64,000 bases of DNA from Clostridia bacterium (lineage in GTDB: Bacteria > Bacillota > Clostridia > Oscillospirales > Acutalibacteraceae). Each line of letters begins with the position of its first letter. The stretch's first letter is position 1. Made by a program: the position numbers and the translations under genes. The DNA lies in contig JAFQLV010000013.1 in the NCBI GenBank assembly GCA_017396515.1, positions 1,010 to 65,009 of the forward strand, given 5' to 3'. The notes below the pieces were generated by a model. It was not told the origin of the DNA and ran no database searches. It saw only the letters and a program-made list of their open reading frames with translations. This document shows, piece by piece, positions 8,923 through 61,538 of this stretch.

Positions 8923-9083
8923 AATTATGAATGAGGAATTATGAATTATGAATTATGAATTGCGACTGAAATTCTGCTAAAGGATAATAGCTACACGCAG
9001 AGATAATGAAGCGTCAGCTTCATTTCATGACCATCAGGTCATTTCATGCACTCAGTGCATTTCATGCCGTCAGGCATTTCATC
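8923..9083 (+). repeat. Structured intergenic element E1: AATTATG array, GCGAC junction, CGCAGAG box and four tandem hairpins
   Basis: Array AATTATG AATGAGG AATTATG x3 AATT at 8923-8961. GCGACTGAAATTCTGCTAAAGGATAA is homologous to the left arm of copies A/B/C. Hairpins span 9006-9077. Confidence 0.8.
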
Positions 9084-10757: not shown

Positions 10758-10877
10758 AATTATTCTTGACGGACCGTCGGGGACGCCGGTCCCTACGCAT
10801 TTACTCTGCGGAAAGACACTCCCCTTCTCGGCAGAGTACGACGCAATTCATAATTCATAATTCATACTTCATAATTA
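10758..10877 (-). repeat. Structured intergenic element E2: AATTATG-type array containing the mgtC stop, GCGTCG junction and CCGCAGAG box
   Basis: The plus strand reads ...CTCTGCGGAAAGAC...GCAGAGTACGACGC AATTCAT x3 ACTTCAT AATTA (array 10845-10877). Confidence 0.75.
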
Positions 10878-11763: not shown

Positions 11764-11800
11764 AATTAATTCATAATTCATAATTCCTAATTCATAATTA
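11764..11800 (-). repeat. Solitary AATTCAT/AATTATG heptamer array upstream of zapA
   Basis: AATT AATTCAT AATTCAT AATTCCT AATTCAT AATTA. It is near-identical to the array at 46418-46452. Confidence 0.8.
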
Positions 11801-14335: not shown

Positions 14336-14833
14336 ATGCCAAAAAGACAGGACTATTTATCATGGGATGAATACTTTATGGGAGTTGCCATGCTTTCATC
14401 CTACAGAAGCAAAGACCCCAACACTCAGGTAGGTGCCTGCATCGTCAACGACAATAACAGGATTATGTCAATGGGCTACAACGGTTTCCCCACGGGCTGC
14501 AATGACGATGAGTTTCCTTGGGAAAGAGACGGGGATGCCTATGAGACAAAATATCCCTATGTGTGCCATGCTGAGCTTAATGCCATCCTCAACTGCAGAG
14601 GTGTAAATCTTGAGGGCTGCAGAATTTATGTTGCACTTTTCCCCTGCAACGAATGTGCAAAGGCTATTATTCAAAGCGGTATAAAAGAGGTTGTTTATCT
14701 CTCTGATAAATATGCAAACACTATGGGTACGCGTGCTTCAAAGCGTATGTTCACCGCTGCAGGCGTTAAAATGACAAAGCTCGAGCCGAAGAAGGCATCG
14801 GTGCTCATTGACTTTGATGAGAAGAAAATTTAA
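14336..14833 (+). CDS. dCMP deaminase
   Basis: CHAELNAI and PCNECAK zinc-binding motifs of the cytidine/deoxycytidylate deaminase fold. Confidence 0.9.
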   Translation: MPKRQDYLSWDEYFMGVAMLSSYRSKDPNTQVGACIVNDNNRIMSMGYNGFPTGCNDDEFPWERDGDAYETKYPYVCHAELNAILNCRGVNLEGCRIYVALFPCNECAKAIIQSGIKEVVYLSDKYANTMGTRASKRMFTAAGVKMTKLEPKKASVLIDFDEKKI

Positions 14834-14853
14834 TCAAAGCAGCAAGCCTTGAT

Positions 14854-15133
14854 AAAATGCAAAATTCAAAATTCAAAATGCAAAATTGCGGTCGCGGGCA
14901 CATTTCTGCCGATAAATAATCTTCTCCCGCAAAGTGAGTTGAGATAAAATACCAACTCACAAGATTATAAAAAATAAGGCAGGTCACTACCGATTTGGAA
15001 GTGACCTGCCGTTTGTTTTAAGATTGATAAGATTTGCCGTTTCTGAGCTTTATCTACGCGGAAAGAGTCTTAAGGTTAGTCAGTGGTAAAATCGCGACCA
15101 CAATTTTGCATTTTGAATTTTGCATTTTGCATT
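14854..15133 (+). repeat. Structured intergenic element, full copy A (AAAATGC arrays)
   Basis: Left array at 14854-14886 and TGCGGTCGCG at 14887-14896. CCCGCAAAG box, then terminator hairpin at 14978-15019 and GCGGAAAGAG box. CGCGACCACA at 15093-15102, followed by the inverted array to 15133. Confidence 0.9.
14978..15019 (+). terminator. Rho-independent terminator hairpin inside element A
   Basis: GGCAGGTCAC-13 nt-GTGACCTGCC followed by GTTTGTTTT. It lies downstream of dCMP deaminase. Confidence 0.7.
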
Positions 15134-15162
15134 AAAAAAGCGACTCCTCAGAGTCGCTTTTT
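15134..15162. terminator. Bidirectional terminator next to element A (serves the acidic zinc-ribbon gene)
   Basis: AAAAAA-GCGACTC-ctca-GAGTCGC-TTTTT. Confidence 0.8.
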
Positions 15163-16417: not shown

Positions 16418-17269
16418 GTGATTACAATAAAAAAGCTTATTTGTGTTTTAGCCTTTCTGTCGGTACTGCTTACATTCTGTGCTTGCACAAAGGAAGACTC
16501 CCCGCATATAACCGCTGCGCCTGAGGAAACAACCACAACAAAATCTCTTACGGTGAGAGTGACCTTCCCCGAGGGTCTGACCCTTGTGCAGATTGCAGAA
16601 AAATTAGAGGAAAGCGAAGTCTGCAATGCCTCACGCTTTATAGCGTTGACAAACGATATGACTTATATTCAGACACTCCCCTACTCTTTTATAAATGAAA
16701 TTGAAAACAGACAGGAAAGGGCATTTATCCTTGAGGGATATATCTTCCCCGACACCTATGAGTTTTATCGCGGTGAAAGCGAAGAAAAAGCTCTCTCCCG
16801 CTTTCTTGACAACACAGAACGAAAGCTGACGGCAGAGTACAGACAAAGAGCCGCAGAGCTTGGCTACAGCCTTGATGAAATTATCACTCTTGCCTCAATT
16901 GTGCAGGAGGAGTCTTACACCAATGACAGTGTTAAAAATGTCTCAAGCGTCCTTCACAACAGGCTTCGCAGCCCCTCTTTTCCGCGCCTTCAGTGTGATG
17001 TTACCATTCACTATGTCAACGATTATATCACCGACTCGAAATTTCTCAGTGCCACTGACGGCTATGCCGAAAAATACAACACCTACAAGTGTGAGGGCTT
17101 GCCCGTCGGTGCAATTTGCAACCCGGGCCTCGCTTCAATTGAGGCTGCCCTTTACCCTGCCGAGACGGATTATTACTACTTTGTAACAGACAGCGATTGG
17201 GATTATTATTATGCCTCGACCTATGCAGAGCACAAGAAAAACTGCAATGCAGTGGGACTTGCGGGTTAA
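16418..17269 (+). CDS. mltG: Endolytic murein transglycosylase MltG (YceG-like)
   Basis: N-terminal TM segment, EGYIFPDTYEF, LASIVQEE and YNTY..GLP.G.I.NPG motifs. The start codon is uncertain (GTG at 16418). Confidence 0.85.
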   Translation: MITIKKLICVLAFLSVLLTFCACTKEDSPHITAAPEETTTTKSLTVRVTFPEGLTLVQIAEKLEESEVCNASRFIALTNDMTYIQTLPYSFINEIENRQERAFILEGYIFPDTYEFYRGESEEKALSRFLDNTERKLTAEYRQRAAELGYSLDEIITLASIVQEESYTNDSVKNVSSVLHNRLRSPSFPRLQCDVTIHYVNDYITDSKFLSATDGYAEKYNTYKCEGLPVGAICNPGLASIEAALYPAETDYYYFVTDSDWDYYYASTYAEHKKNCNAVGLAG

Positions 17270-17299
17270 TTATGAATTATGAATGAGGAATTATGAATG
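17268..17299 (+). repeat. AATTATG heptamer array forming the mltG/GNAT intercistronic junction
   Basis: AATTATG AATTATG AATGAGG AATTATG AATG overlaps the TAA stop at 17267-17269, GAGGAA at 17285-17290 and the ATG at 17297. Confidence 0.8.
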
Positions 17300-28883: not shown

Positions 28884-29798
28884 TTGGTGATAAAATTGAA
28901 TTACATAGTAAAACCGTGTACTTATGATTATAACACAAATAAAAGAATAATAGAAGAGCTAATTTCGGAATATCCCTTTATAAATGCAGAGCTTTGCGGC
29001 AGAACGGCTCTGGGCAGAGGCATTTTCGCTCTGAACATAGGCAACCGCGACAACTGTGTTGTTTATGCCGCCGCCTTTCACGGCAGTGAGTGGCTGACAA
29101 GCCTTGTGCTTTTGCTTTTCACCGAAAGACTGTGCCGCAGCATAAAAGACGGCAGGCTTCTTTGCGGTGTGAATATGAAGCGTGCTCTTACACAGTTAGG
29201 TGTTACAATAATTCCTTGCGTGAACCCTGACGGAGTTGAAATAGCCGTTCACGGCACAGACAGTGCCAAAAACCTCAAAGGCTTTGTCAAAGGTATAAAA
29301 TGCGAGGATTACAGCAAATGGAACGCAAACGCAATGGGCGTTGACATCAATCACAACTTCAATGCAGGCTGGCACACCTTAAGGCAGATGGAAGAGGAGC
29401 AGGGCATACACTCACCCTCACCACGACAGTTTGGGGGCACCTACCCCGAAAGTGAAGCGGAAACCAAGGCTCTCACCCGCCTTTGCAGAATAAGGCAGTT
29501 CAGGCAATGCATGGCCCTGCACTCTCAGGGTGAGGAGCTCTATTGGCAGTACGGTGAAAACACTCCGCCCCAGGCTGATATGATGGCAAAAATTCTCGCA
29601 GATTCCTGCTCATATCAGCTTATAAGCAACAGCGGTCTTGCCTCCCACGGCGGATTTAAGGATTGGTTTATAGATGAATTTCACCGACCCGGCTTCACCT
29701 TAGAAATAGGCAAGGGAGAAAACCCTTTGCCCGCAAGTGAGCTATATGAAATCTACTGCGGAATTGAAGAAGCGCGGACACTTTTTTCACTTATGTGA
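28884..29798 (+). CDS. M14-family zinc carboxypeptidase-like protein
   Basis: FHGSEW (HxxE zinc motif) and a later conserved His region. The start codon is uncertain (TTG at 28884 or GTG at 28887). Confidence 0.7.
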   Translation: MVIKLNYIVKPCTYDYNTNKRIIEELISEYPFINAELCGRTALGRGIFALNIGNRDNCVVYAAAFHGSEWLTSLVLLLFTERLCRSIKDGRLLCGVNMKRALTQLGVTIIPCVNPDGVEIAVHGTDSAKNLKGFVKGIKCEDYSKWNANAMGVDINHNFNAGWHTLRQMEEEQGIHSPSPRQFGGTYPESEAETKALTRLCRIRQFRQCMALHSQGEELYWQYGENTPPQADMMAKILADSCSYQLISNSGLASHGGFKDWFIDEFHRPGFTLEIGKGENPLPASELYEIYCGIEEARTLFSLM

Positions 29799-29805
29799 AA
29801 AAAGT

Positions 29806-30139
29806 AATGCAAAATGCTAAAAAAATGCAAAATGCAAAATTGTGGTCGCGGGGAATTTTCTGCTGATAAGTAGTTTTCTCCCGCAAAAGGAGTGGGGACG
29901 AGATGGTAAGTCTGTAGATTATAATCCTCATCCGTCACTGCGTGACACCTTCCCCTTAACTCAAGGGGAAGGTATAAATAAGGCAGGTCACTACAAGTTT
30001 TCAGTAGTGACCTGCCGTTTGTTTTAAGATTGATGAGATTTGCCTCCTCTGAGCTTCATCTATGCGGAAAGAGGCTTAAGGTTAGTGGGCGGTGAAATCG
30101 CGACCACAATTTTGCATTTTGCATTTAGCATTTTGCATT
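29806..30139 (+). repeat. Structured intergenic element, full copy B (AAAATGC arrays, extra internal hairpins)
   Basis: TGTGGTCGCG at 29841-29850 and CGCGACCACA at 30099-30108. Terminator hairpin at 29982-30025. A 71-nt block (30011-30081) is identical to the reverse complement of 56692-56762. Confidence 0.9.
29982..30025 (+). terminator. Rho-independent terminator hairpin inside element B
   Basis: GGCAGGTCACTAC-9 nt-GTAGTGACCTGCC followed by GTTTGTTTT. Confidence 0.75.
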
Positions 30140-56569: not shown

Positions 56570-56633
56570 ATCTATCCTCCTTTCACTTATATACACCGCA
56601 AATCTTTAAAAAAATTGCAATTTTTTTAAAGAT

Positions 56634-56910
56634 AATGCAAAATGCTAAATGCAAAATGCAAAATTACGGTCGCGACTCCACCACCCGCTGACCTTAAGCC
56701 TCTTTCCGCATAGATGAAGCTCAGAGGAGGCAAATCTCATCAATCTTAAAACAAACGGCAGGTCACTTCCAATTCGGTAGCGACCTGCTGATGCATTATA
56801 ATCTACAGAGTGGGAATTTCATCCCCACTCCCTTTGCGGGAGAGGATTGCTTATCAGTAGAAATGTGCCCGCGACCACAATTTTGCATTTTGCATTTAGC
56901 ATTCTGCATT
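56634..56910 (-). repeat. Structured intergenic element, full copy C (inverted relative to A and B)
   Basis: The reverse complement aligns end to end with A/B. GGTCGCG at 56668-56674, CGCGACCACA at 56870-56879, hairpin at 56757-56788. Confidence 0.9.
56748..56788 (-). terminator. Terminator hairpin inside element C (slightly degenerate stem)
   Basis: The minus strand reads GCAGGTCGCTACCGAATTGGAAGTGACCTGCC followed by GTTTGTTTT. It lies downstream of ridA. Confidence 0.6.
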
Positions 56911-56913
56911 TAA

Positions 56914-58487: not shown

Positions 58488-60152
58488 TCAGAACTTGTTG
58501 ATAATTGCGCCCTTGTCAGCTGAGCTTACCATTGCGGCATAACGGGCAAGATAACCTCTCACATCGGTCTTGACCTTAATAGGCATTTCCTGCTTACGCC
58601 TCTCAATTTCCTCATCGCTGACCTTGAGTTCAATTTTATATTCGGGAATGTTGATTGAAATTATGTCTCCGTCCTTGACATAGGCAATAAGTCCGCCTCT
58701 GACAGCTTCAGGTGATACGTGACCTATGGATGCACCTCTTGTTGCACCTGAGAATCTGCCGTCTGTGATAAGAGCAACATCCTTGTCAAGACCCATACCT
58801 GCAATAGCTGAGGTGGGTGAAAGCATTTCTCTCATGCCGGGGCCGCCTGAGGGGCCTTCATAGCGGATAACAACCACATCACCCTTGACAATTTTGCCGC
58901 CGTATATAGCTGCGATGCATTCCTCTTCACTGTCAAAAACCTTGGCAGGACCTTCGTGAATAAGCATTTCGGGAGCCACTGCACTTCTCTTGACAACACA
59001 GCCGTCAGGGGCAATATTACCTCTGAGCACAGCTATGCCGCCTGTTTTTGAATAGGGGTTATCTACTGTTCTTATAACAGTTTCATCCTTGTTGAAGGCA
59101 TTTTCGATGTTTTCGCCTAAGGTCTTACCTGTACAGGTCATAACACTTGTGTCAAGAAGACCCAGCTTTGCAATTTCTCTGAGTACGGCATAAACACCGC
59201 CTGCTTCGTTAAGGTCTTCCATATAGGTGTGACCTGCAGGTGCAAGGTGGCAGATGTTAGGTGTTTTTTCGCTTATTTCGTTTGCCATATCAAGGTTGAA
59301 GTCAATACCGCATTCATTTGCAATAGCAGGCAGATGAAGCATACTGTTGGTGCTGCAGCCTATAGCCATATCGGCAGTTACGGCATTTCTCATAGCAGCC
59401 TCAGTCATAATGTCACGGGGACGGATATTCTTTTTGACAAGCTCCATAATCTGCATACCTGCGTGCTTTGCAAGCTCAATTCTTGCCGAATAAACAGCAG
59501 GAATGGTACCGTTGCCCTGAAGGCCCATGCCCAGCACCTCTGTCAGACAGTTCATTGAGTTAGCGGTGTACATACCTGAGCATGAGCCGCAGGTGGGGCA
59601 GGTGTTTTCCTCGCATATGCGAAGCTGCTCATCATCAATTTTGCCTGCAGTGTAAGCGCCTACTGCCTCAAACATACTTGAAAGGCTTGTCTTTTTGCCG
59701 TCAACTCTGCCTGCAAGCATAGGGCCGCCTGAAACGAAAATAGTGGGGATATTGAGTCTTGCCGCAGCCATAAGAAGACCGGGCACATTTTTATCGCAGT
59801 TGGGAATCATAACAAGGCCGTCAAAGCCGTGAGCCATAACCATAGCCTCAGTTGAATCGGCAATAAGGTCTCTTGTTACAAGTGAATACTTCATACCGGT
59901 GTGGCCCATGGCAATGCCGTCACAGACTGTAATTGCAGGGAAAACTATAGGAGTACCGCCTGCCATAGCAACGCCAAGCTTGACCGCATCGGCAATTTTA
60001 TCAAGATTTATGTGACCGGGCACTATCTCATTGAATGAGCTGACAATACCGATAAGAGGGCGTGACTGCTCCTCTTTTGTCATGCCCAGAGCGTGATAGA
60101 GACTGCGGTGAGGGGCATTGTGAAATCCGTCGACTATTGTGTCTTTTATCAT
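58488..60152 (-). CDS. ilvD: Dihydroxy-acid dehydratase
   Basis: [19 protein letters not shown] and PNCDKNVPG motifs. AAGGAG lies 9 nt before the ATG at 60152. Confidence 0.95.
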
Positions 60153-60199
60153 TGAAAGCATCTCCTTAAAATTAAAGTAGCGGTGGAGTAAAAAGTCAA

Positions 60200-60458
60200 G
60201 AGTGAGGAGTGAGGAGTTAGGAGTTAGTAGTTAGGAGTTAGGAGTTAGGAGTTGTGGTCGCGGGTTAACTCTATACTAACCTTAAACTCGTTGCCGCAAG
60301 CACAAAACTCGCAAGCGGAAAATTCCGTCGATCATAAAATGTGCTTTTAAATTGCATTATTTTGGCGGAATATAGGGTTCGTTTAAATAAGTTTAAAACG
60401 GATATAATCGGAGCGAAGCGACCCTTAACTCCTAACTCCTAACTCCAAACTCCTAACT
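60200..60458 (-). repeat. Variant element D with GGAGTTA/TAACTCC arrays between ilvC and ilvD
   Basis: GAGTGAG x2 and GAGTTAG-type x5 at 60200-60252. TGTGGTCGCGGG at 60253-60264. The CTAACCTTAA segment is shared with A/B/C. GCGACCC then TTAACTCC TAACTCC TAACTCC AAACTCC TAACT to 60458. Confidence 0.8.
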
Positions 60459-60500
60459 TATTAAAGCTGCTGCACAAACGCACAGCAGCCCTGCAAATTC

Positions 60501-61538
<1,038 letters not shown>

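Follow-up and report, generated by a model that had tools for sequence, protein, structure and literature searches.

The Correia elements of Neisseria and the ERIC (IRU) sequences of enterobacteria are MITEs that carry terminators or promoters, are cut by RNase III and are often co-transcribed with neighbouring genes. REP/BIME sequences occupy intergenic or operon-internal sites near terminators, form inverted clusters and turn over rapidly between strains, the REP unit itself being an imperfect palindrome of 20-40 nt with a conserved tag (GTAG or CGTC). Tandem arrays of heptamers are known in cyanobacteria as STRR, and the eukaryotic Foldback and Galileo transposons, which are much larger and have known or suspected transposases, carry long terminal inverted repeats composed of short tandem repeats, with unequal arms and an association with inversions. 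REP/BIME and REPIN-RAYT systems are among the subjects covered by Di Nocera et al. (2013, PMC3733652). RNase III cuts the 28-bp terminal stem of the IVS in the Coxiella 23S rRNA (Warrier et al. 2016, PMC4990558), and PF05635 proteins have been linked to Avd (PMC10053308). The TAACTGA repeats, intergenic arrays of a 7-nt unit that often abut start or stop codons, are known but unexplained; they are mostly single direct arrays, with one inverted set among 170 (MacGregor 2015, PMC4679880).

Here we describe an element, designated D, in the spacer between ilvC and ilvD of a Clostridia genome, within the 64-kb stretch of DNA that was analysed (hereafter the window, meaning that stretch as a whole). 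D (60186-60466) is probably a non-coding foldback/MITE-like insertion of ~280 bp that is co-transcribed in the ilv mRNA and whose stem is a plausible target for RNase III; we regard it as, most likely, a repeat element that was inserted here, and not as a dedicated ilvD switch. D is a degenerate, terminator-less member of a repeat family that is represented in the window by copies A, B and C.

In function the closest parallels appear to be the transcribed bacterial MITEs (Correia, ERIC) and the REP/BIME clusters, and in architecture the 23S rRNA IVS panhandles and, by analogy, the eukaryotic Foldback elements. Similar to the Correia and ERIC MITEs, the family is small, non-coding and dispersed in intergenic regions, with inverted ends predicted to form a long stem in the transcript. 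In contrast to these MITEs, its arms are tandem heptamer arrays, variable in sequence and length, outside a short conserved core; it shows no consistent target duplication, and no parent IS was found in the window. D shares with REP/BIME an intergenic, operon-internal site near terminators, inverted clusters and rapid turnover between strains; moreover, the ilvC-ilvD spacer of relatives holds GTAG...CTAC hairpins, none of which was found in the window, and allelic units of a heptamer plus a small hairpin resemble tagged palindromes. The units of D itself, however, are plain, non-palindromic 7-nt repeats without a hairpin of their own, the family element carries a conserved cargo of 170-260 nt, and no RAYT was present among the ORFs checked. 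Like the 23S rRNA IVSs, D is sporadically distributed and is a panhandle in which complementary termini enclose a cargo; an allelic PF05635 cassette folds likewise, and the ilvC-ilvD spacer of sister strains, like the IVSs that contain a PF05635 ORF, includes a PF05635 gene, with pairing arrays to either side. D differs from an IVS in its location in the ilvC-ilvD mRNA spacer, its lack of an ORF and its heptamer-array arms, and there is no rRNA in the window. The TAACTCC unit of D shares TAACT with the TAACTGA repeat, but the arrays of the family, unlike STRR and TAACTGA arrays, are inverted pairs fused to a conserved element. The complement of the TAACTGA repeat, TCAGTTA, has AGTTA in common with the D unit. 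Tandem-repeat inverted ends, unequal arms and inversions are features that the D family shares with Foldback and Galileo, by analogy only. In the literature searched we found no description of a bacterial element with inverted ends of tandem heptamers outside a conserved core, and none of PF05635 cassettes that occupy the same insertion sites as heptamer-array elements.

TRF located a GAGTTAG array of 7.7 copies at 60200-60253 (93% matches) and a TAACTCC array of 4.7 copies at 60426-60458 (92% matches), confirming the report in an earlier note on this DNA that inverted heptamer arrays flank the locus; the two are mutual reverse complements separated by 172 nt, and the left array reaches ~60186 once degenerate units are counted. 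The same note described a junction and an internal segment common to A, B and C, and both were indeed found in D, the TGTGGTCGCGGG junction at 60253-60264 and CTAACCTTAA at 60276-60285. Read on the minus strand, on which its orientation is that of A, D opens with a 5' arm of five heptamer units (60425-60459; AAGTTAG GAGTTTG GAGTTAG GAGTTAG GAGTTAA, from TRF and the fold); these had been counted as five GGAG repeats, and the number of units stands, but only four GGAG motifs are present. The arm is followed by a degenerate 5' inner junction (60410-60424), which reads GGGTCGCTTCGCTCC, or alternatively GGGTCGCTTCGC, where the alignment places TTGTGGTCGCGGG in the other copies, and by a D-specific interior (60340-60409) that takes the place of two parts present in A, B and C, namely the 5' module and the central terminator hairpin. 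No second copy of this ~70-nt interior was found among the loci compared, a small sample of these genomes. Next come the 3' module (60263-60339; ..GCGG.AA.....TTAAGGTTAG plus 13 nt), homologous to that of A, B and C by alignment and nhmmer, and the conserved inner terminal inverted repeat core (60252-60262; CGCGACCACAA on the minus strand, TTGTGGTCGCG on the plus strand), which A, B and C carry at each end. The 3' arm (60186-60251; TRF) comprises eight clean and two degenerate units of the AACTCCT type, with outer units CTCACTC, and exceeds the 5' arm by at least three units. D contains no ORF of more than 33 aa and is non-coding.

On its ilvC side the 5' arm is adjoined, on the minus strand, by CTTTAAT (60460-60466; ATTAAAG on the plus strand), a flank in common with other alleles, and then, just after the ilvC stop codon, by a weak terminator-like stem, GGCTGCTGTGC-GTTT-GTGCAGCAGC (60466-60491, minus strand), which bounds the variable cassette site on the left. 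A second minus-strand CTTTAAT lies at 60171-60177 beside the ilvD RBS, AAGGAG at 60163-60168; the duplication had been noticed earlier, with this copy placed one position too high, at 60172-60178. No such flanking duplication accompanies A, B or C, and the CTTTAAT pair is a possible 7-bp target duplication, or else reflects chance or a degenerate terminal unit. Gene calls make the ATG at 60150-60152 the probable start of ilvD. The 3' arm of D ends 17-31 nt from AAGGAG, and the last clean repeat is ~31 nt away, given the ATG at 60152, not ~45 nt as had been stated.

The layout of the family is, in order, a tandem heptamer array, the inner core TTGTGGTCGCG, a 5' module containing the invariant GATTATAA and a pair of small hairpins, a central G+C hairpin with T-runs, a 3' module of ~100 nt that ends TTAAGGTTAG-N13-CGCGACCACAA, and an inverted heptamer array. 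In A, B and C the first array leads into the core TTGYGGTCGCGGG; the 5' module consists of a GCGGG/CCCGC stem, a GAGTTGG/CCAACTC hairpin and GATTATAA; the central hairpin, GGCAGGTCAC-loop-GTGACCTGCC followed by GTTTGTTTT, is an intrinsic terminator; and the 3' module ends CTTAAGGTTAG-N13-CGCGACCACAA ahead of the inverted array. Copy A (14854-15133, plus strand) has AAAATGC arms, a full interior and a bidirectional terminator hairpin, which scores on both strands; B (29806-30139, plus strand) is like A with an additional 50-nt internal insertion; and C (56634-56911, minus strand) lies between ridA and a sigma-factor gene. A core copy without arrays (54812-54915, plus strand), comprising the central hairpin and its flanks only, is located between convergent genes, and remnants resembling the 5' module lie beside ATGAATT arrays at 10801-10872 and 8931-8990. 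The family copies are 79-86% identical and share the invariant motifs GATTATAA, TTAAGATTGAT and CTTAAGGT. D aligns with the family over the 3' module, core and arm only (nhmmer 42.7 bits, E = 4.8e-13); it is without the 5' module and terminator and retains the arrays, 3' core and 3' module. The GGCAGGTCRC..GYGACCTGC hairpin, for which chance would predict 0 matches, is present in A, B and C and at 54861-54889 but not in D, and no terminator-like site was predicted in 60100-60560, so the earlier remark that D is missing the family terminator holds. The copies that lie between or after genes (A, B, C and the core copy) have the terminator, and D, the one operon-internal copy, lacks it. The family has several attributes of a MITE: it is small (~280 bp) and non-coding, it has inverted arms, and A-D and the partial copies are dispersed in 64 kb. 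No transposase or recombinase was detected among the ORFs checked beside the arrays, which encode DUF6273, TSCPD, HTH_3, GNAT, ZapA and similar families or are unmatched (no record was found for the protein right of copy B); the search for a cognate enzyme covered the 64-kb window plus scattered loci.

Additional variation was observed within and around the copies. B and L009 carry extra insertions (50 nt at 29923-29972 and 27 nt at L009:3730-3760) at one common position, where GATTATAA gives way to the central hairpin, and that of B forms its own hairpin, CCTTCCCCTT..AAGGGGAAGG. The outer ends of elements usually lie within 0-6 nt of a palindrome or hairpin that belongs to the neighbouring gene (14833-14853, 15135-15162, 29779-29805, 56611-56630 and 60466-60491), which suggests either that elements insert next to terminator-like hairpins or that the hairpins are part of the elements.

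The window contains 14 period-7 arrays of at least 3.5 copies, compared with 0 in 100 dinucleotide-Markov simulations; all 14 are intergenic and they often lie a few bases from a stop or start codon. Five ATGAATT (AATTCAT) arrays were observed, at 8923-8961, 10845-10876, 11767-11799, 17268-17298 and 46418-46449. Those at 11767 and 46418 are identical over 34 nt, variant unit included, and that at 17268 fills the whole yceG-GNAT spacer, with a variant unit, AATGAGG, as the apparent RBS; its orthologue at L009:6957-6992 has AATTCCG in place of AATTCAT. At 9021-9082, 60 nt from the 8923 array, are 3.5 units of CATTTCATG plus a hairpin (period ~18), the kind of unit found on either side of the L002 PF05635 gene, with no gene between the arrays here. 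At 46337-46368 an array of the AGTGCAG type, a flavour also seen in L009 and L010, is 50 nt from an AATTCAT array, and the intervening stretch is faintly like the family 3' module; this region may be a decayed copy with mismatched arms.

With the heptamer register set from the core, the unit is AAAATGC in A, B and C; AGAATGC, AGAGTGC and AAAGTGC in L009 and L011; GGAGTGA and GGAGTCA in L007; GGAGTTA, with outer units GGAGTGA, in D; GYAATTA (including GCAATTA) in the C-site copy of L001; and TGAATTA in the remnants at 8923 and 10845. The family has at least six such flavours, which form a near-continuous mutational series with neighbours 1-2 substitutions apart, and the comparison substantiates the earlier observation that the heptamer differs between copies that keep the same junction. 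A change of heptamer is always mirrored on the opposite arm. In an alignment of 10 copies, the two arm helices comprise 37 pairs, 17 of which display compensatory changes, and pairing over the whole structure is retained in 93% of cells, a value reached in none of 500 shuffles. In each arm, B and C have the variant unit TAAATGC at matching positions, indicating that the arrays were copied along with the element. We infer that concerted evolution, through point mutation, homogenisation within arrays, and arm-to-arm exchange and/or selection for pairing, accounts for the heptamer pattern, which had been thought hard to explain by simple duplication. A heptamer unit would mutate, slippage would spread the change through its array, and the arms would stay complementary via exchange between them and/or selection for pairing.

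The long stem anticipated in the ilv sense RNA was recovered in the minus-strand fold of 60150-60500 (-110.1 kcal/mol, z = -6.35), in which the arms of D pair as 20 + 11 bp. A and C fold as panhandles with outer stems of 40-46 bp (z = -12 and -11). The family element as a whole is weakly self-complementary. The predicted fold is more stable for its forward strand (-94 kcal/mol; interior -52.8) than for its reverse strand (-82 kcal/mol; interior -41.4), and it is on the forward strand that G-U pairs are concentrated. It could be argued, on the basis of this asymmetry, that the family is a functional structured RNA or sRNA gene in which selection acts on the conserved interior, represented in D by the 3' module, the arrays serving to close the structure or direct processing. 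The few compensatory pairs in the interior helices and the invariant motifs listed above point in the same direction. It should be emphasized, however, that half of the interior is missing in D, that the copies are only 79-86% identical and amount to 10 sequences from one narrow clade, and that no consistent promoter was found; furthermore, a search of Rfam 15 gave no match at gathering thresholds, only chance eukaryotic matches with E above 2. We consider such a gene unlikely. Conservation is higher in the interior motifs than in the arms, and the forward strand gives the more stable fold, so that the cargo may nonetheless have a function of its own; the folding bias and G-U clustering, as modelled from 10 related sequences, fit a role for it at the RNA level.

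Contigs fetched through exact and near IlvC proteins revealed that the ilvC-ilvD spacer is a hot spot at which cassettes turn over. D gives a spacer of 339-348 nt in the window, L003, L004, L034 and L035. The spacer is empty (28-31 nt) in the L057 group, L068 and L076; holds one REP-like GTAG...CTAC hairpin (57-73 nt) in L067 and L069-L075, at ~2318-2390, in strains whose IlvC is 93% identical and with a stem that varies by compensatory changes; and contains the ilvC hairpin plus two mini-hairpins (113 nt) in L084 and L085. A 283-nt allele with inverted arrays of ATATCGA plus a variable hairpin, and almost no cargo, occurs in L080 (2318-2600) and, identically, in L082; 4-5 units of ATATCGA with a perfect variable hairpin face 4-5 inverted TCGATAT units across ~15 nt. 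This allele resembles a repeat-spacer mini-array in which each spacer is a palindrome. The largest alleles (~600-670 nt) consist of a PF05635 gene (117-120 aa, E ~1e-27) between inverted arrays of AATTCATG/CATTTCATG plus a hairpin and were found in L001, L002, L017, L037-L046, L077-L079, L081, L083 and L086, with cassettes spanning, for example, L001:7020-7625, L002:7020-7692 and L037:1328-1960. PF05635 is the 23S rRNA IVS protein or Avd-like family, and its spacer gene is present in strains with identical or 99% identical IlvC. The flanking units, of 16-20 nt, combine a conserved heptamer (AATTCAT or ATTTCAT) with a small variable hairpin, and the arrays pair as a panhandle. As the GGCTGCTGTGC..GTGCAGCAGC hairpin and TTTAAT precede both D and the different cassettes of L037, L078, L083 and L084, the variable part runs from just after TTTAAT to (T)TYAAGGAG.

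The strain with the L002 PF05635 allele is conspecific with the D-bearing strain (96-97% ilvC/ilvD DNA identity), and the other cassette alleles belong to sister species (87-93%). Comparison of relatives for an empty site, as the earlier note had envisaged, did yield spacers of 28-31 nt, but only at 77-84% ilvC/ilvD DNA identity, that is, in more distant relatives; no strictly empty spacer was found within the species among the contigs compared. Some of the diversity of alleles could therefore have arisen through homologous recombination in ilvC/ilvD that exchanged the entire spacer. Among the spacers compared D is confined to one lineage, and the presence of other cassettes, or of nothing, in the spacers of relatives indicates that D is neither conserved with ilvD nor needed for it. 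A second presence/absence polymorphism of arrays was observed between the DUF815 gene and ridA, where L002 (10543-10731) has a 190-nt block of ATGAATT units and units of ATGAAATG plus a hairpin, and the D-bearing conspecific has a 13-nt spacer (L003:7385-7397).

These comparisons bear on the proposal, made in the earlier note, that D is an SD/anti-SD riboregulator whose GGAG and CUCC repeats compete with the ilvD SD or with ribosomes and so tune ilvD translation. The arms do pair in the predicted fold, at least three surplus CUCC units lie by AAGGAG, and in the MFE structure the ilvD SD takes part in a weak CUCC:GGAG pairing of 4 bp; in addition, a promoter-like TTTAAA-17-TATATT (60397-60369) in the D interior, directed toward ilvD, could yield a transcript without the GGAG arm. 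This promoter-like match, however, scores 9/12, no better than shuffles, and D is absent or replaced in strains with identical IlvC protein. GGAG is, moreover, just one flavour among at least six in the family and is lacking from A, B, C and others. The GGAGTGA-flavoured full copy of L007 lies between convergent gene ends, with no RBS involved, and thus the GGAG content looks incidental. A device dedicated to ilvD is therefore, in our view, very improbable. A side effect on ilvD translation is possible, as the ~3 surplus CUCC units of the modelled structure could pair with AAGGAG.

Both orientations of the element occur at orthologous sites. At the A site, downstream of a dCMP deaminase gene, it is forward in L026 and L030-L032 and reversed in L024, L027, L029 and L025 (= L009), with flanks that are 97-99% identical and outer flanks alike for both orientations; at the C site in L001 the copy is inverted and diverged. 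The element is missing downstream of an identical deaminase in L028, where synteny is broken. It might be proposed from such alleles that the family is an invertible switch (inverton), in which a site-specific recombinase acting at the inverted TTGTGGTCGCG cores flips a terminator or promoter cargo, and the conserved inverted cores and directional cargo (the terminator and a promoter-like ATGAAA-16-TATAAT or TTGAGA-18-GATTAT) would suit that role. Forward and reverse interiors are, however, only 82-86% identical (14-18% different) even though the flanks are 97-99% identical, which points to old inversions or replacements and not to fast switching. Furthermore, no recombinase gene was found near any copy among the ORFs checked beside the arrays, the 5' core of D is degenerate, and D is identical and in a single orientation in all five contigs that carry it. 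We regard an inverton as highly unlikely. The inversions at orthologous sites fit the arm-to-arm exchange invoked above. The remaining candidates were rejected: a retron or integron attC, as there is no RT or integrase nearby and heptamers of other flavours do not fit GTTRRRY; a riboswitch or T-box, as there is no Rfam match; a CRISPR-like array, as the 'spacers' of the hairpin-type arrays are palindromes; and P-nucleotide excision footprints (for arrays of heptamer plus palindrome), as the palindromes are unrelated to the adjacent heptamer.

If D is an inserted foldback element, as we favour, it would be transcribed within the ilv polycistron in the element-forward orientation, and the arm duplex (20 + 11 bp) would bring the 3' end of ilvC close to the 5' end of ilvD. 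A duplex of at least 20 bp would be a plausible RNase III substrate. The element would persist in the ilv operon because it is without a terminator, only a terminator-less copy being tolerated there, and A, B, C and the core copy would supply intrinsic, partly bidirectional terminators at gene ends. Any influence of D on ilvD would be a by-product.

On available evidence the family appears narrow, being found in Acutalibacteraceae assemblies only among the sequence collections scanned. The junction pattern TTAAGGTYAG-N12-14-CGCGACCRYAA, scanned over one genome per species for 185,579 species, returned five true loci in two Acutalibacteraceae MAGs and three chance matches in coding DNA. No family member was found in JGI metagenomes, viral contigs, phage or plasmid records; one JGI metagenome contig gave a candidate match to the junction pattern, and the repeats that TRF reports on it are unrelated. 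BLAST against phages and plasmids likewise found no element, only unrelated (GGAGTTA)n arrays. Single direct arrays of this kind lie at L087:1170-1235 (a Sulfurovum mangrovi plasmid) and L088:1110-1240 (Nostoc plasmid pNPM1), the Nostoc array being mixed with GAGTGCT, GAGTTAA and GAATTAG units, very close to the family flavours. The repeats break metagenome assemblies, and many contigs end at them.

A broader interpretation can be advanced tentatively, and we consider it doubtful: that inverted arrays, of plain or hairpin units, define a new class of bacterial panhandle cassette, moved or exchanged by machinery that recognises structure or periodicity; that the PF05635 cassettes are the mRNA-spacer counterparts of the 23S IVS; and that the same process lies behind the STRR, TAACTGA and GGAGTTA arrays of cyanobacteria, Beggiatoaceae and others. 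If such a class exists, its members would carry a terminator/ncRNA module in A-D and a PF05635 Avd-like gene in other cassettes, and would be without cargo in L080.

The interest of the locus lies in the family and the hot spot and not in the regulation of ilvD, and annotators should treat D as a repeat element, not as a leader or riboregulator of ilvD. The end structure of the family, with tandem heptamers outside a conserved core and both arms evolving in concert, is unusual. The ilvC-ilvD spacer brings together three poorly understood features, namely arrays of heptamers, arrays of REP-like hairpins and PF05635 'IVS protein' genes that stand alone, and may provide a natural test bed for the spread of such elements and for the splitting of operon mRNAs by long spacer stems.
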